From Bacilli bacterium (lineage in GTDB: Bacteria > Bacillota_I > Bacilli_A > RF39 > UBA660): 64,000 nucleotides of DNA. Shown piece after piece: positions 7,692 to 21,651 of this stretch. The DNA is taken from positions 10,329 to 74,328 of the forward strand of contig JAFXXB010000020.1 in assembly GCA_017542465.1 (NCBI GenBank). Direction: 5' to 3'. The notes below the pieces were generated by a model. It was not told the DNA's origin and made no database searches. It worked only from the letters and a program-made list of their open reading frames with translations. Each line of letters begins with the position of its first letter. The stretch's first letter is position 1. A program made the position numbers and the translations under genes.

Positions 7692-8339
7692 TTATTCATC
7701 AAAAATCGCATCTAAATAATAGATTGGTTTTCCATCTTTAACACATTTATTCTCCCAATCAGTTGGTATATTAGATATTGGATTTTCGTCATTATATAAA
7801 TCTAATGATACTCTTTTAAAAGTATACCAATATTGAGATAATGTTTCCAAACTATATTGGAATAAACCTTTATTATCTGTTTTTAATATTATATGTTTAT
7901 TCTTCTTAAAGATTCTATCATATAGTTTTAAATAACCTACATGAGTAAATCTTTTCTTTTCATCTATTGGTTTAGGCCATGGTTCAGAGAATGTTAAATA
8001 TATAGTATCTATCTCTTTACCAAATATATTTATTATATCAGTAGCATCTCCACATATAAGTTTTAAGTTAGGTATATTTTGAGAACCTATCTTTTGAACT
8101 GCAGTAGCTGTTTGAGATTCATTTAACTCTAATCCTATAAAATTGATCTTAGGATATTTTTTAGCCATCTCTATAATAAACTCTCCTCTACCCATACCTA
8201 ATTCTAAGTGTATTGGATTTTTATTACCAAATGCTTGCATCCATCTATTCTTATTTGAGTTAGGATTCTTAATAACATACTTAGAATTATTAAGTATATT
8301 CTTAGCATCTCTTACAACATTATATTCCATATAATCCAC
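7692..8339 (-). CDS. trmB: tRNA (guanine-N7)-methyltransferase
   Basis: LELGMGRG SAM motif, FSEPWPK, KTDN, PTDWE. Confidence 0.93.
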   Translation of the reverse strand: MDYMEYNVVRDAKNILNNSKYVIKNPNSNKNRWMQAFGNKNPIHLELGMGRGEFIIEMAKKYPKINFIGLELNESQTATAVQKIGSQNIPNLKLICGDATDIINIFGKEIDTIYLTFSEPWPKPIDEKKRFTHVGYLKLYDRIFKKNKHIILKTDNKGLFQYSLETLSQYWYTFKRVSLDLYNDENPISNIPTDWENKCVKDGKPIYYLDAIFDE

Positions 8340-8388: not shown

Positions 8389-9069
8389 TTAATCTTTTAT
8401 CTTAAGACTCTTTAAATACTCTTTATGTTCATCTGTAACTCTATAACTTTCAATTGCTTTTTGAATTGTTCTATTGTGAGTCCACTTATCTAACTTATTA
8501 TTTTCTATATATTTAATAGTAGCATAATATTGTTTAGCTAATGCTGTAGCATAGAACCATGCTCTCATCATATTAACATAGTATTCATTAGATTTAATCT
8601 TAGATATGATATCTAAATAATCTACTTTAAAATCATCATCTAAATAATATTGCATTAATGCACATATCCCAAATCTAATAGTATATGTTTCTTTTGATTT
8701 AATCCATTTATATATTTCATCTATAAGTTTATCTCTATTCTTCTTAAATATTTTAGGACTCATTTGATCACATGTAGCCCAGTTATCTACATAAGGCAAA
8801 AACTCATTTATATATTCTATACATTTATCATAATCTTTTATTTCAGAAATAATAAATGCATGTAATTGATTCTCATCAAAATATTTATGTGGTAAATCTT
8901 TCAAGAATAATTCATAATTACCACTTTTATATAATTCTTTTGCATATTTTCTTAAATCAGGAGTTCTTATACCTATGAAATAATCAATAGGAACATTAGG
9001 TATTAATTTACTTTGAAAATCTCTATATTTTATATCTTGTAGTTTAAATAAATCATCAATAATACTCAT
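8389..9069 (-). CDS. DNA alkylation repair protein (AlkD-like HEAT repeat)
   Basis: GIRTPDLR, DNWATCD, EYYVNMMRAW, HNRTIQKAIES motifs; start at Met 9069 behind AGGAGA. Confidence 0.85.
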   Translation of the reverse strand: MSIIDDLFKLQDIKYRDFQSKLIPNVPIDYFIGIRTPDLRKYAKELYKSGNYELFLKDLPHKYFDENQLHAFIISEIKDYDKCIEYINEFLPYVDNWATCDQMSPKIFKKNRDKLIDEIYKWIKSKETYTIRFGICALMQYYLDDDFKVDYLDIISKIKSNEYYVNMMRAWFYATALAKQYYATIKYIENNKLDKWTHNRTIQKAIESYRVTDEHKEYLKSLKIKD

Positions 9070-9136: not shown

Positions 9137-9667
9137 TTATATTTTTAGTAATACTCTAAATCCTCTATTTGAATAATATGATTCAGCACCATTATGATAT
9201 ATAAAAGTCCTATTATATTTTTTATCACCAAATAATGCTCCACCCAATTTCCTAATTTCCTTTGGAGTTAATATCCAGCTTGAAGATTTTAAATCAAAAT
9301 CTCCAAGTGATTGAAGATATTTATATTCTATTTCATCTAATACTTTTACCTTATTATTATTTGCTTCTGTTATAATGTCCGAATTTGGTTTATTACTTTT
9401 TCTACTATTCAAAGCATCTATATCATAACAAAAACTTCTTCTTCCAATGGGAGATTCTATTGAAGTATCACAATAAACATACTTATCATTTTCTTTATCA
9501 TACATTATAACATCTGGTTCTCCACCTGTTTCTTCCATATATCTTAAAGAAAATAATGCTTCATTATTTAGTCTTTTAAAAACATCATTCCAATTAATTC
9601 CTTTATGCATAATTTCATTTTTAATAAATCTTTTTTCTAAAATTGATATTAATTCCTCATTACTCAT
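9137..9667 (-). CDS. DUF4256 family protein
   Basis: MEETGGEPDV, ESPIGRRSFCYD, IRKLGGALFGD, HNGAESYYSNRGFR motifs. Confidence 0.85.
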   Translation of the reverse strand: MSNEELISILEKRFIKNEIMHKGINWNDVFKRLNNEALFSLRYMEETGGEPDVIMYDKENDKYVYCDTSIESPIGRRSFCYDIDALNSRKSNKPNSDIITEANNNKVKVLDEIEYKYLQSLGDFDLKSSSWILTPKEIRKLGGALFGDKKYNRTFIYHNGAESYYSNRGFRVLLKI

Positions 9668-9731
9668 ATTACACCTCATAATAGTTTATTATTACTTAAA
9701 ATTATACCATAATCTTTAAAAATATAAATAA

Positions 9732-9753
9732 TCGCAATATTACTATTTTCCGA
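9732..9753. repeat. Cassette-boundary site A1 (8-6-8 quasi-palindrome)
   Basis: TCGCAATA-TTACTA-TTTTCCGA, upstream of the DUF4256 promoter. Confidence 0.7.
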
Positions 9754-9897
9754 ACATACAAAAAAGACTAGATTTCCTAGTCTTATTTATTTAATTACTT
9801 ATTGTTTTTTTGCTTTGATTGTGGCTTGAGATTACACCCAACTAAAAGCTCCAAATCCTACGAGTTTCCGTATTGTTTTTGACTAAATATTTATTAA

Positions 9898-9919
9898 TCG
9901 GAATATCCTAATCTTACGA
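9898..9919. repeat. Cassette-boundary site B1
   Basis: TCGGAATA-TCCTAA-TCTTACGA, 6 nt beyond the hydrolase stop codon. Confidence 0.7.
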
Positions 9920-9925
9920 TGCATT

Positions 9926-10915
9926 TTATTTTAAATAATCTTTTAAAAATTTTTCTATCTTATCAAATGGTATTTTATCTTTTTGATCATATAAATCTGT
10001 ATGAGTTGCTCCTGGTATAACTACTAATTCTTTATTGCTAGTATATTTAGAATCTTTAATCATATTATCATAAGCATCTTTTCCCATATAAAATGAATGA
10101 GCTTTATCTCCATGAACAATCATTACAGCACTTCTAATCTCATTAGAATAATGTAATAATCTTACATTCATCATTGAAGTACTAGATTGTATTGCCCAAC
10201 CTCCATTTGAATTTAAACTTCTCTTATGATATCCTCTTGGAGTTTTATAATATGCATGATAACCTTGTAAGAATTCAGGAGCATTTTCTGGTAACGGATC
10301 GATTACTCCACCAGCTAGAGCATATTCTCCATTCTTATAATCTTCATTTCTTTGATTGTTTAAATTAACTCTTTGTTGGTATCTTGCTTCTTCATTATCT
10401 TGTTCGTCAAAATATCCATTTCCAGCAACTCTAGACATATCATACATAGTTGATACGATAGTAGCTTTTATTCTTGTATCAATACATGCAGTTTGAAGCG
10501 CCATTCCACCCCAACCACAAATACCTATAATTCCAATACGCTCAGAATCAACATTATCTAAACTAATTAGATAATCTACTGCTGATTGAAAATCTTCTAC
10601 ATTGATGTCAAAAGATGTCATATATCTTGGTTCTCCACCTGATTCACCAGTAAACGATGGATCAAATGCAATTGTTAAGAATCCTCTTTCAGCCATTTCT
10701 TGAGCATATAATCCACTTGACTGCTCTTTTACTGCTCCATAAGGACCACTTACAGCTAAAGCTGGTAGTTTACCTTCATAATCTTTTGGCTCATACATAT
10801 CAGCTGCTAATGTAATGCCAAAATGATTTTTAAATGTTACTTTTTTGTGATTTACTTTATCACTTTGAGGGAATACTTTATCCCATTCTTGAACTAAATT
10901 TAATTCTTCTTTCAT
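9926..10915 (-). CDS. Alpha/beta hydrolase (YcjY-like)
   Basis: FTGESGGEPR, GICGWGG nucleophile elbow, ATHTDLYD; AGGAGG RBS. Confidence 0.88.
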   Translation of the reverse strand: MKEELNLVQEWDKVFPQSDKVNHKKVTFKNHFGITLAADMYEPKDYEGKLPALAVSGPYGAVKEQSSGLYAQEMAERGFLTIAFDPSFTGESGGEPRYMTSFDINVEDFQSAVDYLISLDNVDSERIGIIGICGWGGMALQTACIDTRIKATIVSTMYDMSRVAGNGYFDEQDNEEARYQQRVNLNNQRNEDYKNGEYALAGGVIDPLPENAPEFLQGYHAYYKTPRGYHKRSLNSNGGWAIQSSTSMMNVRLLHYSNEIRSAVMIVHGDKAHSFYMGKDAYDNMIKDSKYTSNKELVVIPGATHTDLYDQKDKIPFDKIEKFLKDYLK

Positions 10916-10971
10916 CATATTCCTCCTAATTATCAATAAATATTATACCACAAATTATCAAACTATAATGT

Positions 10972-10993
10972 TCGCAATATTGCTATTTTACGA
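10972..10993. repeat. Cassette-boundary site A2
   Basis: TCGCAATA-TTGCTA-TTTTACGA. Confidence 0.75.
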
Positions 10994-11008
10994 TAAAAAA
11001 AGATGTAT

Positions 11009-11075
11009 TTAAACATCTTTTTTTCTAATATCAAAACTGTTTCAACATGCCTTGTATGCGGTCAACAAACATATC
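11009..11075 (-). pseudogene. Orphan copy of rlmD 3' end (att-like scar) with downstream terminator hairpin
   Basis: Minus strand GAT ATG TTT + GTTGA + CCG CAT ACA AGG CAT GTT GAA ACA GTT TTG ATA TTA GAA... = DMF/PHTRHVETVLILEK; matches the rlmD end DMFPNTYHVETVMVLERKDV; one base lost in the A-run. Confidence 0.85.
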
Positions 11076-11096
11076 ATAATATCTTATATCTTACAA
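11074..11096. repeat. Cassette-boundary site B2 (7-nt spacer variant)
   Basis: TCATAATA-TCTTATA-TCTTACAA, 5 nt beyond the CPBP stop codon. Confidence 0.6.
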
Positions 11097-11101
11097 TCAT
11101 T

Positions 11102-11749
11102 TTAGATTAAGAATAATGCTAAAACATCTGCTAAGAAATGTGGTATCCAACTACACCATGCATTATCTGTTTCTTTAAATACCAATCCAAATAATGATGA
11201 ATCAATAAATACAAATAATAAATCATATGCTACTATTATAAAACTTCCTGCACTATAATGTCCTAATGCAAATAATAAAGATGTTACAATTATTGATAGT
11301 ATATAATGTATTTTTTTAGAAGTTTGCTTTTGAAAAAATCCTCTCCATGCTATTTCTTCTCCCAAAGTAAGAACTGCCAATGTTAAAATAGTTCTCATTA
11401 AATCAGTTGATGTGGCAAAATTAATTCTATCTTTTAAATGATTATTGAATTCTGGAATGAATTTATTTGCAATTATAGTACATAGTATAACTGATATAAA
11501 TGGTAAGAATGCATATATAATTGACTTAGGATGATCTTTAAAATCTTTAAATATAGTTTTAATATTTAATCCTTCATCTTTCGTTTTATTTGCTTTTCTA
11601 GTAACAAAGAAAGCAACTACTCCAACAATAACTGAAATACCAGAAAGTTTTAACACTTCTCCATCAATTTTAATATTCAATAAATTTGTTAATGATAATA
11701 TAGCAATTACTATTAAAAATATTACTACACTTTTATTCCCTTTATTCAT
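11102..11749 (-). CDS. CPBP/Abi (CAAX-protease-like) intramembrane protease
   Basis: GEEIAWRGF, LLFALGH, PHFLAD motifs; start at Met 11749 behind GAGGAG. Confidence 0.88.
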   Translation of the reverse strand: MNKGNKSVVIFLIVIAILSLTNLLNIKIDGEVLKLSGISVIVGVVAFFVTRKANKTKDEGLNIKTIFKDFKDHPKSIIYAFLPFISVILCTIIANKFIPEFNNHLKDRINFATSTDLMRTILTLAVLTLGEEIAWRGFFQKQTSKKIHYILSIIVTSLLFALGHYSAGSFIIVAYDLLFVFIDSSLFGLVFKETDNAWCSWIPHFLADVLALFLI

Positions 11750-11803
11750 TTTTTCAACTCCTCTATTAAACATTATACCACGAATTTTTAAAATTAAATT
11801 ACT

Positions 11804-11825
11804 TCGCAAGATTACTATATTGCGA
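11804..11825. repeat. Cassette-boundary site A3
   Basis: TCGCAAGA-TTACTA-TATTGCGA, the most symmetric copy. Confidence 0.75.
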
Positions 11826-11870
11826 TTAAATAAGTTTCGAATTTACAAAAAAACTTATCTAAAAACGTAT

Positions 11871-13316
11871 CTAAAGTTTTCCTATTTTCCGATTGCCGGG
11901 TTCAAATAAATCTATGTCTTCTATGTTAATGTCACTCATGTTAAATGATTTAAAGAAATTACTTCGTATTCCATTTAAAAGATCTTCTACAGCAATATTA
12001 TCTTCCCATGTAGGATTTAGTTCATTTTTTATACCACTTGGCCAGTCATATAAATGAAACCCACCGTTTTCTCCAATTCCCCATCTTCCATGTACAAATG
12101 CATTTCTAATCCTATTTACAGGCAATATTTTCTCACCACACTCAAAGTTTTCTTGAGAATCAACTGTTCTAAAATAAAAACTAGCTAGAAGAGCTATATT
12201 ATTCATATTTCTAGCCTCTAAATCCGATATATATTTTAAAATCAAATTAATTGTATCTGTATTATTTCCAAAACTATCATATAATAAATTTCCAGTTTGT
12301 TTTTTTCCATAATTACGCATATATTCATCTACTTTTCTTTGCATATATAAATTATATTCACTATTTGAATTATCCCAGTTGGATATAAAATTATCATAAA
12401 TAAGTATGTTTTCATTTTGATTAAATGCAGCTTTATATATTCCAATTGGCAATATTATTCTCATATAATAGATAATAAAATCAGTTAATAGTTTTCCATT
12501 CGATAAAACATCCGTGCGGCCTGCTATTTCTTTAAATTTTCTAAGCATTTCTTTTTTTTGCGTTTTTGTTAATTCATGTACTACTTTTTCAGCACCAAAT
12601 TGATTGGCTTTTTCTAACATTATTTTTTGAAAATTATTACTATCTACTCTAGATAAAGCAGCCTTATATTCCAAAGAATTCCCATCAACTATCTTTTGCG
12701 TATATAAAAATCTCACATAATTAAATCTGTCAAAAAAGGAAGACAAATCGTTTGGATCTATATCTTTTGAGTTATCTATTTCCATACCTGTTGTTGAATA
12801 TGTACTAGATGAAAGATTAATATATTTTACTAAAATTTCAATATCATTTTTGGGAATTATTAAGTTTAATGGCTTAGGTTTTGTTCCTTTCATGTCAATT
12901 ATTATATACTGTCCATCTTTTGTGATTTTATATAATTCATTAATATTACTATGAGAAAAAGCATCTCTTAAAAATTTCAAAATATTTTTCCCGCTAAAAA
13001 TTTTTTTGTCTTTTTTATCAACAAACCATCTTTCTGGTATTTCTATATTTTTGGCTTCTATATAATCAAAAACTTCATCTTTCGTTAAAGAAAATGCATC
13101 TATATATCTTAAAATTGAAATAATATTTATCATTTTGTCATAGTTCTCTTTTGTTGCTTTTGGACCATTTTTTAAACTCCTATTTAATTCATTTAAAGTT
13201 CTTATATAATTTGTCTTGTATGTATCCTGAGGAAACCTTGAATTCATATCAAGAAAGTATGTATTTAATATTAAATATAATATTATATCTGCTTTGTTTA
13301 AAGTCTTCTCCTCCAT
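11871..13316 (-). CDS. Hypothetical protein with two HEPN-like RxxxxH motifs
   Basis: LRDAFSH and IRNAFVHG, each followed by a short beta-hairpin-like stretch; own promoter, RBS and terminator. Confidence 0.6.
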   Translation of the reverse strand: MEEKTLNKADIILYLILNTYFLDMNSRFPQDTYKTNYIRTLNELNRSLKNGPKATKENYDKMINIISILRYIDAFSLTKDEVFDYIEAKNIEIPERWFVDKKDKKIFSGKNILKFLRDAFSHSNINELYKITKDGQYIIIDMKGTKPKPLNLIIPKNDIEILVKYINLSSSTYSTTGMEIDNSKDIDPNDLSSFFDRFNYVRFLYTQKIVDGNSLEYKAALSRVDSNNFQKIMLEKANQFGAEKVVHELTKTQKKEMLRKFKEIAGRTDVLSNGKLLTDFIIYYMRIILPIGIYKAAFNQNENILIYDNFISNWDNSNSEYNLYMQRKVDEYMRNYGKKQTGNLLYDSFGNNTDTINLILKYISDLEARNMNNIALLASFYFRTVDSQENFECGEKILPVNRIRNAFVHGRWGIGENGGFHLYDWPSGIKNELNPTWEDNIAVEDLLNGIRSNFFKSFNMSDINIEDIDLFEPGNRKIGKL

Positions 13317-13368
13317 TATATCAACTCCTATAATTAATTATAACATAAAAGAACGAATTCTCATCCGT

Positions 13369-13390
13369 TCTATATATCTTAATATTACGA
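13369..13390. repeat. Cassette-boundary site B4 (left arm degenerate)
   Basis: TCTATATA-TCTTAA-TATTACGA, 5 nt beyond the GNAT stop codon; spacer identical to B3. Confidence 0.55.
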
Positions 13391-13395
13391 TTACT

Positions 13396-14139
13396 TTATT
13401 TAATTAATTTTTCAAATGCATTTGCATTTAATATTGTATTTGAAACAAATTTACCTTTATAAAAGTTTGCCCAGTTATTAAATACACATGGAGCATTCTT
13501 TGCTTTCTCTAATGAGTCTATTTTTATAAAGTTTAACTTAATTTCCTTATCTTTTGCATAATCAGATAATTCTTTTACTTCATATTCTACATATGGGCAT
13601 TCATTAGAATAGTAAATAGTGAAATCTTGACTATCTATTTCCATCTTACGAGCACTATCACTAAATTTAGGTGTTTCTTTATCATCAAATTGTAATGCCA
13701 TTAATTCATAATCATTAATTGTATCTACTACTTTAAATCCATAGTGTTCAAAGAACTTCTTATCTCCAATAAATGGTTTCTTCTTTTGTGATACTAATGT
13801 ACATATACCACTCATTTTTTTCTTTTTAGCATCTTCAATAGCATATTCTAATAATTCTTTACCAATACCTTTTCCTTTAAAACTACCAGCAACCCATAAA
13901 CAGTAAATATGCATATAATTTTTACCGTTAATAGGAACCCAAGCTGTTTCTATTGGTTCATATTCAATAAAGATTTTACCTCTTGCATTTAGCTTTCTAA
14001 ATACATGACCATCCTTTATTTTACTTTTAATCCATTCTTTCTTTTTATCAACACCATCTTGATGTTTAGGATCTCCTATAGCACAACAAATATGCTCTTC
14101 ATCAATATTCTTTTCATCTAAATTAATGTACTCATTCAT
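13396..14139 (-). CDS. GNAT N-acetyltransferase with C-terminal YoaP domain
   Basis: EEHICCAI, FIEYEPIETAW, CLWVAGSFKGKGIGKELL, CPY...APCVFNNW. Confidence 0.88.
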   Translation of the reverse strand: MNEYINLDEKNIDEEHICCAIGDPKHQDGVDKKKEWIKSKIKDGHVFRKLNARGKIFIEYEPIETAWVPINGKNYMHIYCLWVAGSFKGKGIGKELLEYAIEDAKKKKMSGICTLVSQKKKPFIGDKKFFEHYGFKVVDTINDYELMALQFDDKETPKFSDSARKMEIDSQDFTIYYSNECPYVEYEVKELSDYAKDKEIKLNFIKIDSLEKAKNAPCVFNNWANFYKGKFVSNTILNANAFEKLIK

Positions 14140-14199
14140 ACTCACACCTCTATATTCATTATAGCACAAATTTTTACTATTTTTTTCTTACTTGCTTCT

Positions 14200-14221
14200 T
14201 CGGAATACTACTATTTTACGA
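14200..14221. repeat. Cassette-boundary site A4
   Basis: TCGGAATA-CTACTA-TTTTACGA, identical to A5. Confidence 0.8.
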
Positions 14222-14236
14222 TTAAAAAGATGTCTT

Positions 14237-14304
14237 TTAAACATCTTTCTTTTCTAAAACCATAAGGCTTTCAACATGCCTAGTATGCGGTCAACGAACA
14301 TATC
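14237..14304 (-). pseudogene. Orphan copy of rlmD 3' end (att-like scar) with downstream terminator hairpin
   Basis: Minus strand GAT ATG TTC + GTTGA + CCG CAT ACT AGG CAT GTT GAA AGC CTT ATG GTT TTA GAA AAG AAA GAT GTT TAA = DMF/PHTRHVESLMVLEKKDV*. Confidence 0.88.
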
Positions 14305-14324
14305 GTAATATCTTAATCTTGCGA
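14303..14324. repeat. Cassette-boundary site B3
   Basis: TCGTAATA-TCTTAA-TCTTGCGA; its reverse complement matches A3 at 19/22. Confidence 0.75.
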
Positions 14325-14332
14325 TTATTCTA

Positions 14333-15088
14333 TTAATTAAAAATCTTTTTCTTATTATTTATTTTAACTAGAACTAGTGACATTATTACTAATATAATTG
14401 ATGTTACTAAACTACCAATAATATTTTCATTAATTATATATATACCACTTAATGAATTTACAATACAATGAAATAATACACATAAACATACACTATTAGT
14501 ATTTTTTCTAATACTTGCTAAAGCAAAAGCTAAACCTAATACACTTATACCAAAAGCAAAATAGTTTTGTCCATATTGGGCAACTCCTTGAATAAAGAAT
14601 AAAGGTAAATGCCATATCCACCATATAACACTGACAACTAATGTTGATAAAAGAAAATTATGTTTCTTTTCTAATTCAGATTGTAAAATATATCTCCATC
14701 CAGCTTCTTCTAATCCACCACCAATTAACATTATGGGTATCATAAGAACAATTGCATATAAAGGAAAACCACTTTCATATCCTGAAATAAATATTTGAGG
14801 TAAAATATATACTACACCTAAAAATATCACCATTAAATAGGATAATAGATTATGTTTGAAATCAAAAATATGTTTAACCCAATCTTTAAATCCTTTAATT
14901 TGCTTGTTTTTCTTTAGTGATATATAAGAAGCAATAGTTGGAGACCAGCCTCCAATCAAATATGGAACATATAATAATAGATTATCTTTTAATATAATTC
15001 CATTTATACTGCAAACTATTAATGTTCCCCAACAAATAATCATTATTAAAAATGTAATTGATAAATAATCTTTAATTAATTTATTCAT
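14333..15088 (-). CDS. CPBP/Abi intramembrane protease
   Basis: GGGLEEAGWRY, WWIWHLPLF, CVLFHCIVN motifs. Confidence 0.88.
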   Translation of the reverse strand: MNKLIKDYLSITFLIMIICWGTLIVCSINGIILKDNLLLYVPYLIGGWSPTIASYISLKKNKQIKGFKDWVKHIFDFKHNLLSYLMVIFLGVVYILPQIFISGYESGFPLYAIVLMIPIMLIGGGLEEAGWRYILQSELEKKHNFLLSTLVVSVIWWIWHLPLFFIQGVAQYGQNYFAFGISVLGLAFALASIRKNTNSVCLCVLFHCIVNSLSGIYIINENIIGSLVTSIILVIMSLVLVKINNKKKIFN

Positions 15089-15140
15089 ATAATCAACTCC
15101 TTCTAATATATTATATCATTCTTTTTATCTTTCTTGCTCA

Positions 15141-15162
15141 TCGGAATACTACTATTTTACGA
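15141..15162. repeat. Cassette-boundary site A5, just beyond the rlmD terminator
   Basis: TCGGAATA-CTACTA-TTTTACGA. Confidence 0.8.
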
Positions 15163-15179
15163 TTAAAAAAAGATGTCTT

Positions 15180-16376
15180 TTAAACATCTTTCCTTTCTAA
15201 AACCATAACTGTTTCCACATGATATGTATTAGGAAACATATCAAGACCATATATCTTTTTAATATTATAATGTTCTTTTAATATATTTATATCTCTAGCT
15301 AATGTCATTGGATCACATGATACATATCCAATCATATTAGGTTTAATCTTAATTATATCTTTAATAGTTTTATCATTTAATCCTGATCTAGGTGGATCAA
15401 CAATAATAATATCTATCTTGTCATTTATTTTATTTAACATAACTGATGTATCATCAGCATAATATTTATAATCTTTAACACCATTTAATTTAGCATTATC
15501 ATTTGCATCTTTAATAGCATTAGCTATCTTCTCTATGCCTATTATTTTTTTAACCTTATCTTTCATAGATATTCCCATTACACCTGAACCACAGTAAAGG
15601 TCTAATAAAGTATTACCTTCTAAATAATTATTTAATATCTTAAATATTTCATTAGCAATATAATTATTTATTTGAAAGAATGAATTATATGATACTTTAA
15701 AATTATAATCACCTATTTTATCTTTAAAATATGATTCACCATATACTACTTTATCATTAATGATTATACCTACAATATTCTCAGGTATATCATCATGTAA
15801 TTCATATTTACTAGTGTTAATAACTAATAAGATATCATCATTATAATTAGTTCTTATAGTTATATCTCCATCATATATATAAATAAAACTATGATTACCT
15901 ATTATCTCATTAATTGTATTGTTAGCAAGTAAACATCTATTAATATATACATCATCATGGGAATCTTTATTGTAATAAGAAAACTTATTCTTATTAACTC
16001 TTAAAGTTATCTTATTTCTATAGAATAAATCTTTATTAGATTCTATTAGTTTAATCTCAGTATCAATACCAGCATATTTAAATAATATATCTTTTAATCT
16101 ATTCTTCTTAAATTCCATTTGTTTATCAAATGGCATATGCATTAAAGTACATCCACCACATTCATTTATATAAGGACACTTAGGTTGTATTCTATCTTGT
16201 GATGATTTAATAATATTTATAACTTTAGCTAAATAATATTTAGATGTCTCTTTAATAATTTCTACTTCTACTTCTTCATCTATTAATGCATTATAAACAA
16301 ATACTATCTTATTATTATAGTATGAAATACCTCTACCTTGATTATCAATTTTATTAATTGTTAGTTTTGTATGCAT
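15180..16376 (-). CDS. rlmD: 23S rRNA (uracil-C5)-methyltransferase RlmD/RumA
   Basis: TRAM domain, CPYINECGGC Fe-S motif, SFFQIN, DLYCGSG, VDPPRSG, YVSCDP, DMFPNTYHVE. Confidence 0.93.
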   Translation of the reverse strand: MHTKLTINKIDNQGRGISYYNNKIVFVYNALIDEEVEVEIIKETSKYYLAKVINIIKSSQDRIQPKCPYINECGGCTLMHMPFDKQMEFKKNRLKDILFKYAGIDTEIKLIESNKDLFYRNKITLRVNKNKFSYYNKDSHDDVYINRCLLANNTINEIIGNHSFIYIYDGDITIRTNYNDDILLVINTSKYELHDDIPENIVGIIINDKVVYGESYFKDKIGDYNFKVSYNSFFQINNYIANEIFKILNNYLEGNTLLDLYCGSGVMGISMKDKVKKIIGIEKIANAIKDANDNAKLNGVKDYKYYADDTSVMLNKINDKIDIIIVDPPRSGLNDKTIKDIIKIKPNMIGYVSCDPMTLARDINILKEHYNIKKIYGLDMFPNTYHVETVMVLERKDV

Positions 16377-20351: not shown

Positions 20352-20415
20352 ATCGTTTCCTTTCTATTTTTATTAAAACACATTTTGTGTACTATATCAA
20401 TAAAAAATACATCAG

Positions 20416-21651
20416 TTATCTTGATGTATTTTTAACATATTCACTTGGAGTATTTACTACACCAGTAAATAATAAAGTATTGTTTTTCTTATCTCTTATC
20501 ATATATAAGAAAGGTTTGTTGAAAGATATATTAATTATATCATATTCTTCTCTTATTGCAGTTGCTTTATCTAATCCAAAATAAGTAACAGCTGCAGCTT
20601 TAGTTCCCTTTTCATTTAAATCTATATATGTTTTGTGAATAGCTGTTGATACATATAGATTTTCTATACCAACCTTCTTCATATAATTTCTAGCAATAAT
20701 ATTTGTAAAATCTGCATTCTTTTCATCAAAAGCATCAGTCATGCCCATGTCCTTTAACATTTCCATAAATTTATTATAATCATATGAATAAGAGAACTTA
20801 GGTAAACCTAAATTAATATGTAGACTTCTACTAGAAGATCTTTTACTTTCTTCTAATGTTTCAAATTCTTTCTTATCTAACTTTTTAATATATTCATCAA
20901 TATTTTCATCTGGCATTATTGCTATGAATTCAAGATTTGTATCATCCTTATATGGAATAATAATTCCTTGAGCTTTTTTAGACTTAATATAATATGCTCC
21001 ATCATCAGATTCATAACTATTATGCATCATATTAACATTCATCTTTGTTCCATCTTTTTTAGTGAACTCTGCATTTCTAGTTGCTGCTCCATCAAATGGT
21101 TGTTTCCATTCAACATCTATAGCGATAGCATTAGCTAAACCTAAAACAAAATCTTTACTTATATCATTTAATAAAGTTGGTATCATTCCATCAGTTTTTT
21201 CATTAACCCATTTATTAATTACTTCTGGAGTATCGAACTTATCATATAATAATTCAGCTTTATGATTATCTTTTAATAATTTAACATAGTTATTTTCTAT
21301 AACATCTTTGTATTGATCTTTTATAAATACACCATTTGCATCTTTAACTGAATTGTTATTAATAGCTTTTGTGTTATTTCCAATTAACTTTTCAATTTGG
21401 GCTTTTGTGTTTCCACTTGCTCCATCTTTTAACATAGCCATTGCTTGTTCCATTGAATATGGTGAAACTAAATAATTATCATTATTCTTTTCATTAGTTC
21501 TTTTTAATACTTCAAGATTAAAATCACTTTCAATAATTACTGTTCTTTCATGTTTATTATATTTATTCATTATAAATAAGTATAAAACAAGTGTTATTAC
21601 AGTTATAATAAGAAATACACTACAAATAAAAACTACTTTATTGTTTCTCAT
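20416..21651 (-). CDS. Membrane-anchored serpin (serine protease inhibitor)
   Basis: N-terminal TM; NYLVSPYS, INKWVNEKTDGMI, hinge EKGTKAAAVT, FNKPFLYMIRD. Confidence 0.92.
   Translation of the reverse strand: MRNNKVVFICSVFLIITVITLVLYLFIMNKYNKHERTVIIESDFNLEVLKRTNEKNNDNYLVSPYSMEQAMAMLKDGASGNTKAQIEKLIGNNTKAINNNSVKDANGVFIKDQYKDVIENNYVKLLKDNHKAELLYDKFDTPEVINKWVNEKTDGMIPTLLNDISKDFVLGLANAIAIDVEWKQPFDGAATRNAEFTKKDGTKMNVNMMHNSYESDDGAYYIKSKKAQGIIIPYKDDTNLEFIAIMPDENIDEYIKKLDKKEFETLEESKRSSSRSLHINLGLPKFSYSYDYNKFMEMLKDMGMTDAFDEKNADFTNIIARNYMKKVGIENLYVSTAIHKTYIDLNEKGTKAAAVTYFGLDKATAIREEYDIINISFNKPFLYMIRDKKNNTLLFTGVVNTPSEYVKNTSR

Follow-up and report, generated by a model that had tools for sequence, protein, structure and literature searches.

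A probable composite array of single-gene mobile cassettes bounded by two versions of a 22-bp site behind rlmD in an uncultured gut Bacilli bacterium

Introduction

Integrons and the clusters of attC sites lacking integron-integrases (CALINs) are functionally the closest known system to the locus described here, in which nine co-oriented copies of a 22-bp site (eight strong and one degenerate) are distributed between six accessory genes downstream of rlmD, an rRNA methyltransferase gene, in an uncultured small-genome gut bacterium. The locus lies in a window of 64,000 nucleotides (the whole stretch analysed: positions 10,329 to 74,328 of contig JAFXXB010000020.1, assembly GCA_017542465.1, Bacilli bacterium, lineage UBA660), which is part of contig C34 of the metagenome-assembled genome (MAG) G000 (1.09 Mb in 46 contigs, 27% G+C, 87% complete). 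In both systems the cassettes are co-oriented, mostly of a single gene and followed by a site close behind the stop codon, a distinct site stands at the head (type A here, attI in integrons), cassettes are common to distant hosts, content varies between relatives and many arrays (the CALINs, in the case of integrons) have no linked integrase. The features that define an integron, namely IntI, folded attC sites and promoterless cassettes, are nevertheless absent: attC sites are folded hairpins of 57-141 bp with R''/L''/L'/R' boxes and extrahelical bases, whereas the present sites are 22-bp duplex dyads with an 8-bp core, which exists in two heterospecific versions and is fixed in sequence rather than structure. 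Furthermore, integron cassettes depend on a common Pc promoter, whereas each cassette here has its own promoter and the junctions hold terminators; no IntI-type integrase is found beside the array. We know of no report of an integron from this small-genome Bacilli lineage.

The staphylococcal cassette chromosome (SCC) and pseudo-SCC islands at rlmH (orfX) of staphylococci are likewise tandem, partly recombinase-less elements at the 3' end of an rRNA methyltransferase gene, with the gene end repeated at each junction, and their mobilisation in trans by the serine recombinases of other elements is the accepted model. The units behind rlmD differ in their size (about 1 kb, one gene each), in the additional A and B sites, in the occurrence of the cassettes at other anchor genes and in integrative and mobilizable elements (IMEs), and in the absence of a linked Ccr-like enzyme. 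Integrase-less elements that keep their attachment (att) sites and pile up at a gene end are also known as cis-mobilizable elements (CIMEs) from the accretion of IMEs and integrative and conjugative elements (ICEs) in the ICESt1 family; similarly, arrays of the relatives studied here are carried by IMEs that have tyrosine or serine integrases and MobV relaxases. CIMEs, however, have a single att type, while the cargo of the present arrays is enclosed by an additional site pair that does not depend on the anchor. Direct repeats of the target 3' end, as in SCC and CIMEs, occur at three junctions of the window only (rlmD twice, ppdK once). The rlmD gene (rumA) is itself a known target of serine-recombinase IMEs of streptococci, which insert internally and disrupt the gene, whereas the rlmD tail is rebuilt in the present locus (PMC5704250).

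Small modules with short two-armed sites and no recombinase of their own, moving between replicons, are represented by the pdif modules of Acinetobacter; pdif sites are copies of the host dif (11-6-11) in alternating orientation, whereas the sites reported here are unrelated to dif and all point the same way. Shared arms with incompatible spacers are also the design of engineered heterospecific lox/FRT pairs, which allow a segment flanked by one of each to be swapped by double exchange, and two copies of one element described below (L064 and L067) differ in just this manner; lox/FRT pairs are 34-bp laboratory constructs used with Cre or Flp, whereas the present pair is natural and 22 bp long. 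Considering these comparisons and the evidence below, the locus is likely to be a composite array of integrase-less single-gene mobile cassettes, in which A and B are heterospecific versions of one recombination site. A sequence-only reading of the window had already suggested a gene-capture array of integrase-less units that was not recognised as a described system; the units indeed encode no recombinase, and the sites are described in none of the literature and sequence collections searched.

A 22-bp site in two versions

Each site consists of 7-bp inverted arms (TCGnAAn and nTTnCGA) around an asymmetric 8-bp core, and the core takes one of two discrete forms, A (ATAGTAAT) or B (ATTAAGAT). 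Across 77 instances from many genomes, conservation ends exactly at 22 bp. When 578 kb of fetched array regions were scanned for the arms with the centre left free, the A core was recovered at about 40 places, the B core at about 41 and A/B hybrids at none. A rare third core class (ATTTTGAG) with the same arms (TCGnAATATTTTGAGATTnCGA) occurs at L069:7751, G157:C11:19660 and G234:C112:46; the site in G157 lies about 190 nt upstream of a module composed of RepHTH, Xis, integrase and Mob genes. In the sites of the window and its relatives, the variable positions 4 and 19 show neither pairing nor covariation, which argues that the site is read as a duplex by a two-fold symmetric protein; an attC-like hairpin or an IS200-type single-strand site was rejected on the same absence of covariation in the variable stem positions. 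The 7-bp arms are probably bound by two subunits of one recombinase.

Eight of the nine sites in the window (all except B2) fit the 16-base degenerate pattern TCGNAANATNNNNATATTNCGA with at most two mismatches (starts in Table 1); 16 strand matches were obtained as against 0.22 expected from shuffled sequence, in which the maximum was 3. The remainder of the 1.09-Mb assembly holds one further good site (C11:93895) and one weak site (C1:72205), unlike REP/BIME repeats (repetitive extragenic palindromes and bacterial interspersed mosaic elements, linked to RAYT), of which a genome carries tens to hundreds of intergenic copies. The good site outside the window is of A type (TCGTAAGTTAGTAATATTACGA) and stands before genes for an Xre-type helix-turn-helix (Xre-HTH) membrane protein and a GNAT protein, close to a contig end and with no B following (G000:C11:93895-95248).

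Read on the minus strand, away from rlmD, the sites follow the order A5 B3 A4 B4 A3 B2 A2 B1 A1, in strict alternation, and their asymmetric cores hold one direction relative to the genes throughout. The same constancy was observed in metagenomes, where all sites were co-oriented in 51 of the 51 loci with more than one site among the matches listed. B sites start 5-8 nt past the stop codons of four cargo genes (the first CPBP gene, the GNAT gene, the second CPBP gene and the hydrolase gene); the next TATAAT box downstream of an A site is 24-36 nt away. Every cassette is provided with a TGnTATAAT box and a ribosome-binding site (RBS) of its own, and the DNA between cassettes reads B - terminator - A, supplemented in the window by the orphan 3' tail of an anchor gene (rlmD twice, ppdK once); the junctions at B4 and A3 have no such tail. 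The stack of sites behind rlmD, its alternating and co-oriented order and the placement of B behind cargo stops and of A ahead of cargo promoters thus agree with what had been read from the sequence alone. Apart from the sites, a direct repeat, TTTAGAT(A/C)AGTTTTAGAT(A/C)(A/T), was seen 25-50 nt upstream of A sites that have no preceding terminator (window 11826-11870, L065:14580-14650, L068, L076 and L082); it may be an accessory binding site.

Evidence for exchange within the site

Evidence for recombination comes from the way in which flanking sequences assort around the sites. Among 280 distinct sites, which were in part collected through the B pattern itself, 326 pairs share a flank (60-nt flanks, ungapped 40-nt comparisons): the likeness is confined to the left in 116 pairs and to the right in 206, and extends to both sides in 4. 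Sites with a common left flank differ mainly at positions 16, 19, 20 and 22; where the right flank is common, most differences fall at positions 3, 4 and 7. Arms are therefore inherited together with the adjoining flank, which places the exchange point inside the invariant core.

Individual loci show the same behaviour. Two genera (L064 and L067) have one small mobilizable element in common, whose copies agree at 99.8% identity over 3.3 kb as far as a position within B; about 130 bp outside A are also common to the two copies, yet the cassettes between A and B are different. The protein of the GNAT-YoaP cassette is 93-98% identical in five other genomes (L011, L063, L076, L080, L093 and L096), in differing contexts, while the rlmD genes of these genomes are 72%, 38% or undetectably similar to that of the window; in L076 the homology to this cassette runs from the first base of A to the stop codon. 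Furthermore, 39 of 103 sites on whole metagenome contigs lie at most 300 bp from a contig end (17.9 expected), and contigs with the same or a 93% identical rlmD stop at the terminator or at the A site; such breaks are typical of assemblers at population-level branch points or repeats.

The rlmD-trmB interval and travelling gene tails

The interval between rlmD and trmB has no fixed order among genus-level relatives (70-73% rlmD identity), in line with the variable content that the sequence-only reading had anticipated. It holds one gene with no assigned function in L122 and four in L118 (a deoxyribosyltransferase gene, a DNA-alkylation repair gene, a beta-lactamase-like gene and a small open reading frame, ORF), both without A or B sites and with the native rlmD tail (..ILNKKN and stop in L122), as against seven genes and nine A/B sites behind an element-type rlmD tail in the window. 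In L011, L119 and L120, rlmD ends in ..VMILEKKDV (stop) and is followed by the same terminator, a perfect A and a GNAT gene as the first cassette. The tail VM(V/I)LE(K/R)KDV (stop) is limited to relatives with an A site, and array-free relatives end otherwise.

A member of another genus, G248, whose rlmD is 38% identical, carries a comparable array of 14 sites. It reads rlmD - terminator - A - cassette - B - orphan tail and terminator - A - cassette - B and so forth, with the GNAT cassette (98% identical) in fourth place and B-only junctions thereafter. The module B - TATGTTCGTTGACCGCATAC..tail - terminator - A is nearly alike in G248 and the window, and is likewise found between other cassettes of G248. 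As the functional rlmD tails of both genera are of the element type, these tails arrived with mobile DNA; no orphan rlmD tail was found in 16 more distant relatives searched. The two copies of the rlmD end with their terminators that had been noticed inside the array are real (repeat family D1), the first being a copy of the last ~17 rlmD codons with the same terminator. An earlier remark that some 70 bp are nearly identical from A4 and A5 onwards holds for the site and for about 45 nt upstream of it (end of the rlmD tail and terminator), while the 70 nt downstream are only loosely alike.

A third tail is of different origin. The 144-bp stretch before A1, formerly taken for a spacer with a terminator, is an orphan ppdK 3' end with the ppdK terminator: it aligns with the true ppdK 3' end, terminator and A site of L143 and L153, and the array anchored at ppdK in L069 has an identical junction (B - orphan tail - A), with which it aligns too. 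By sequence, a block that formerly headed a ppdK array is now inside the rlmD array. Targeting of the rlmD tail cannot yield such an arrangement, while exchange at A or B can.

Distribution and carriers

A scan of 301 genomes of this Bacilli family returned matches in 70, of which about 25 (~8% of the family set) from many genera hold at least four sites; reversed-pattern controls were near zero and the same two site types occur in every genus. Public metagenome contigs scanned with the B consensus gave at least 120 contigs with matches, rumen and gut being their main sources. A search of 2.9 million viral contigs gave no exact site, and phage and plasmid collections gave no match apart from one distant GNAT gene; a phage origin is disfavoured by these absences. 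The literature searched likewise held no paper with the site sequences, and word searches returned only integron and IME reviews.

The anchoring at rlmD is real in the window but is not a property of the system, since the same sites bracket cargo behind ppdK, uvrA, yebC, secA and rbgA and inside several kinds of IMEs. The genes upstream of A in 30 loci are mutually unrelated (rlmD, uvrA, yebC, ppdK, Mob, type IV coupling protein and restriction-modification genes). First A sites follow rlmD in four genomes, and elsewhere ppdK, uvrA, yebC, restriction genes, a coupling-protein gene or MobV relaxase genes, the latter 300-330 nt upstream of A in several IMEs. The MobV-preceded arrays lie in IMEs integrated at secA by way of tyrosine integrases; array ends were also seen before rbgA, and small IMEs at tRNA CCA ends house further arrays. 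The usual order of sites in an array is A, B, B, B, and most junctions in relatives consist of B, or of B - terminator - A, with no gene tail. The common picture is that of a cargo bay that begins at A and ends at B, with B-bounded cassettes inside, and that is built into otherwise unrelated carriers.

Clustering of the ORFs near arrays yielded cargo (Xre-HTH proteins with a transmembrane segment, ABC ATPases and GNAT proteins) and anchors, and no recurrent new enzyme candidate. The Xre-HTH transmembrane genes are the commonest cargo, being present in 10 of about 20 arrays and also behind the second A site of MAG G000. The product of one A-B cassette (L065:9202-9867, genome G043) is a hexapeptide-repeat transferase according to Pfam (Hexapep only), and visual comparison suggests a likeness to Vat/streptogramin acetyltransferases; likely antibiotic-modifying enzymes may thus be among the cargo.

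Proposed course of assembly

The proposal builds on what the sequences establish, i.e., the site anatomy, the two cores, the constant orientation, the assortment of flanks, the spread of cassettes between genera and the variable interval. Strand exchange would take place within the 8-bp core, with A recombining with A and B with B, so that the segment between like sites could be excised, inserted or exchanged. Minimal circles (rlmD tail - terminator - A - cargo - B) may have been stacked in tandem at rlmD, either through exchange between A sites or through recombination in the ~125-bp module of tail, terminator and A, and the block from a ppdK array would have moved in later through an A or B site. 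In a circular carrier, its own att region (the gene tail) would lie between B and A. The enzyme would act in trans, and circles would be formed; as the fixed 8-bp core suggests a mechanism that needs spacer identity, a recombinase of the tyrosine type is favoured.

Candidate recombinases

The absence of a recombinase from the 64 kb, which had been claimed in the sequence-only reading, stands for the tyrosine (PF00589) and serine (PF00239) families, the two profiles searched; transposases, included in the original claim, were not searched. No PF00589 match was found in the whole of MAG G000, nor were xerC/xerD-type genes and dif, the missing xer/dif region being probably an assembly gap. Two Xer-type genes are present in all 16 family genomes tested (8 of them array-bearing), and the family dif is the canonical Firmicutes sequence TATAATATATATTATGTTAACT, found once per genome and 1-4 kb from a xer gene in most of the 10 relatives scanned; neither A nor B resembles it or has an arm in common with it. 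An IME tyrosine integrase (of the RepHTH-Xis-Int-Mob module) occurs in 8 of 14 array genomes against a base rate of 8%. A B site about 190 nt upstream of this module is readable as the end of a preceding cargo bay, and the enrichment may be hitch-hiking.

The only serine recombinase of MAG G000 (C46:31229-32628, cut by the contig end) was rejected as the array enzyme: it is an integrase that inserts exactly after tRNA CCA ends (attL ..GCTCCA/TTTGTAAAAATCG..; loci L083-L087). It is 92-99% identical in four other genera, which indicates recent transfer; that it is associated with array-positive genomes is best put down to a cargo bay within the element. A second IME recombinase adjoining arrays in G040 and G078 uses tRNA-CCA att sites as well and was likewise set aside. 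No intact element that targets the rlmD tail was seen in the loci read.

A shorter serine recombinase of ~415 aa (Resolvase, Recombinase and Zn ribbon domains) is found in nine loci behind a perfect B and before an rbgA start, in the order B - terminator - promoter - recombinase - rbgA start (for example, L109:821-2200, L108:11464-12900, L100, L110, L111, L139 and L167); where the real rbgA is missing, a 17-codon orphan rbgA start takes its place. This arrangement suggests an integrase that serves a cassette system of its own, set at rbgA starts and having B-type junctions in common with the arrays. Being absent from most array genomes and tied to the rbgA-start copies, it is kept as no more than a weak candidate for the array enzyme.

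Alternative explanations

Several findings weigh against the cassette array proposed here. No recombinase is linked to the sites and none is encoded by the cassettes; G248, with its 14-site array, has just two Xer-type recombinases and G257 one further integrase, while G248, G257, G021 and G043 all bear arrays and gave no PF00239 match. Arrays in genomes without a dedicated recombinase may be inherited relics; frequent orphaning of the arrays, as in CALINs, is one explanation, and an enzyme from a family outside those searched is the other. The collection of flank-sharing sites depended in part on the B pattern, and two contigs of the same strain have the same cassette order. Moreover, the module at B4 (right half of B, hairpin, promoter and RBS; window 13317-13390) is identical up to the ATG in L097:6572-6650, where a different ORF follows, and L011 and L093 have similar modules ahead of other genes. 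Borders that fall at a start codon are not explained by a crossover in the 22-bp site; candidate causes are gene conversion among the junction modules and a further type of exchange. Finally, an extended -10 box follows both site types at a fairly constant distance of about 25-35 nt, which would suit a regulatory protein too; judged from this spacing, a regulatory role, alone or in addition, is possible.

The last two points are the core of an explanation in which a regulator (for example, one of the membrane-anchored Xre-type HTH proteins frequent as cargo in the arrays) uses the sites as operators and the mosaics arise by homologous recombination or gene conversion of junction modules. We consider it very unlikely. 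An invariant 8-bp centre in two classes with a fixed direction to the genes is unusual for a dyad operator, the operators of transcription-factor regulons being orientation-free dyads with an unconstrained centre that serve chromosomal operons; B abuts stop codons ahead of a terminator; and most pairs have unrelated flanks, so that RecA-type exchange would lack sufficient homology. The sites are also absent from the rest of the genome; they are confined to mobile arrays and behave as recombination junctions, contrary to the genome-wide operators that the sequence-only reading had named as a refuting outcome. Pure tandem accretion at gene tails, in the style of SCC or CIMEs, would dispense with the 22-bp sites as recombination sites altogether and would rely on integrases specific for the rlmD, ppdK or secA 3' ends, or on Campbell-type recombination through tail modules of ~60-125 bp. 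The orphan tails at three junctions and the element-derived rlmD tails of array-bearing genomes fit this account, large serine recombinases are present in 242 of the 301 family genomes, and insertion with tail duplication followed by decay to integrase-less elements is established for the accretion of ICEs and IMEs (PMC5704250). It is nonetheless unlikely, because most junctions in relatives (as well as B4 and A3 in the window) have no gene tail, homology breaks inside the 22-bp core and not in the tails, and the ppdK tail within the rlmD array cannot stem from targeting of the rlmD tail.

The remaining alternatives keep the sites and change the enzyme. A serine recombinase, be it the ~415-aa type before rbgA or a large one borne by IMEs, could tell A from B by the central dinucleotide (GT as against AA). 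The nine loci with the ~415-aa gene behind B, the origin of its four closest intact homologues from array-positive genomes and the position of large serine recombinases 1-4 kb from arrays in L064, L067, L070 and L209 speak for this possibility, which we regard as doubtful, if the least improbable of the alternatives. The att sites of large serine recombinases are imperfect dyads of roughly 40-50 bp in which only the central dinucleotide must match, whereas conservation here spans 22 bp and the whole 8-bp core is fixed per class. The rbgA-start copies are the likelier att of the ~415-aa enzyme, the two IME recombinases examined use tRNA-CCA sites, and, besides the four array-bearing genomes with no PF00239 match, MAG G000 has no recombinase of the short type. 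Mobilisation by a MobV/Pre relaxase or HUH enzyme, with A initiating and B terminating as in IS91/ISCR or Pre-RSA, would suit the A, B, B, B order of typical arrays, the direct orientation of all sites and the MobV genes shortly upstream of A in several IMEs. We find it highly improbable, as no relaxase is found in MAG G000 or in many array contexts, the two variable N positions (4 and 19) without covariation make a hairpin signal unlikely, and arrays with several A sites and chromosomal A sites far from Mob genes are common. Use of the sites by the host XerC/XerD as dif-like 8-6-8 sites, after the manner of pdif, is barely credible: short two-armed sites do bracket single-gene modules without a dedicated recombinase, Xer genes were present in 16 of 16 genomes and the G248 array is accompanied by Xer recombinases only, but the family dif is unlike A or B, the sites do not alternate in orientation as pdif does, and arrays are restricted to ~8% of genomes although Xer is universal.

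Features of the locus

The coordinates of the array and its borders are collected in Table 1. Pfam agrees with the names previously given to rlmD and to the cargo genes for two CPBP proteins, the GNAT-YoaP protein, the alpha/beta hydrolase and the DUF4256 protein. The label of a two-HEPN protein for the third cassette gene was not sustained, since no Pfam or PADLOC profile matches it and two Rx4H motifs are all that can be read. A 77% identical copy of the fourth cassette gene occurs in the ppdK-anchored array of G141, and the DNA alkylation repair gene next to trmB is present too in the variable interval of L118. Beyond the array, a serpin-family gene (PF00079; window ~20400-21650, L060:4726-5961) lies upstream of the conserved gene group mgtE-recX-rluB-rlmD and is found in all genus-level relatives.

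Table 1. Coordinates of the sites, cassette genes and junctions between rlmD and trmB, in window positions and listed in minus-strand order
Feature	Position	Strand	Basis
rlmD, 23S rRNA U1939 methyltransferase gene, anchor	15180..16376	-	Pfam tRNA_U5-meth_tr and TRAM
Last ~20 codons of rlmD (...DMFPNTYHVETVMVLERKDV, stop), element-borne type			Tail comparison with relatives
Intrinsic terminator, overlaps the stop codon of rlmD and belongs to the conserved module of tail, terminator and A	15165..15190	-	Sequence
Site A5 (TCGTAAAATAGTAGTATTCCGA), A-type core	15141..15162	-	Pattern match
Cassette gene 1, CPBP/Rce1-like membrane protease, 251 aa, own TATAAT promoter	14333..15088	-	Pfam
Site B3 (TCGCAAGATTAAGATATTACGA), B-type core, 8 nt past the stop codon	14303..14324	-	Pattern match
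Junction module 1, orphan rlmD tail (PHTRHVESLMVLEKKDV, stop) and terminator	14222..14302	-	Repeat family D1
Site A4, identical to A5	14200..14221	-	Pattern match
Cassette gene 2, GNAT acetyltransferase with YoaP-like C-terminus, 247 aa	13396..14139	-	Pfam
Site B4 (TCGTAATATTAAGATATATAGA), degenerate right arm, followed by hairpin, promoter and RBS	13369..13390	-	Pattern match
Cassette gene 3, 481 aa, two Rx4H motifs, HEPN-like by motif only	11871..13316	-	Motifs read in the translation
Site A3 (TCGCAATATAGTAATCTTGCGA), 45 nt past the stop of gene 3, TTTAGATA(A/C)G repeat motif ahead	11804..11825	-	Pattern match
Cassette gene 4, second CPBP/Rce1-like protein, 215 aa	11102..11749	-	Pfam
Site B2 (TGTAAGATATAAGATATTATGA), degenerate, one base lost in the left arm	11074..11095	-	Sequence
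Junction module 2, second orphan rlmD tail and terminator	10994..11073	-	Repeat family D1
Site A2 (TCGTAAAATAGCAATATTGCGA)	10972..10993	-	Pattern match
Cassette gene 5, alpha/beta hydrolase, Peptidase_S15/DLH-like, 329 aa	9926..10915	-	Pfam
Site B1 (TCGTAAGATTAGGATATTCCGA)	9898..9919	-	Pattern match
Junction module 3, orphan ppdK 3' end (..SQATIKAKKQ, stop) and ppdK terminator	9754..9897	-	Alignment with L143, L153 and L069
Site A1 (TCGGAAAATAGTAATATTGCGA)	9732..9753	-	Pattern match
Cassette gene 6, DUF4256 protein	9137..9667	-	Pfam
DNA alkylation repair gene, cassette-like promoter, without recognisable site	8389..9069	-	Pfam
trmB, conserved far border of the variable interval	7692..8330	-	Pfam

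Implications for small-genome gut and rumen Bacilli

In a wider and more tentative interpretation, to which we give somewhat less than even weight, the arrays may represent a natural cassette-exchange platform of small-genome gut and rumen Bacilli that is absent from the literature searched. One recombinase recognising the 7-bp arms, together with two (perhaps three) incompatible cores, would define cargo bays, entered at A and left at B, in chromosomal gene ends (rlmD, ppdK, uvrA, yebC and rbgA) as well as in unrelated IMEs, so that resistance, immunity and defence genes could be swapped. Were such a platform to exist, its shared bays and the promoters of the individual cassettes would make cargo swappable between carriers with no need of an integrase in each. 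The short site with its two naturally orthogonal cores points to a compact recombinase, with potential use in cassette exchange. If the platform is real, it would account for the breaking of assemblies of these bacteria at array loci, and for the flexible gene pool of their ~1-Mb genomes, which comprises acetyltransferases, CPBP immunity proteases, hydrolases, restriction systems and a gene resembling streptogramin-type acetyltransferases (Pfam hexapeptide only). It would then be a second, independently built answer to the task that integrons perform, namely the storing and shuffling of ready-to-express accessory genes.

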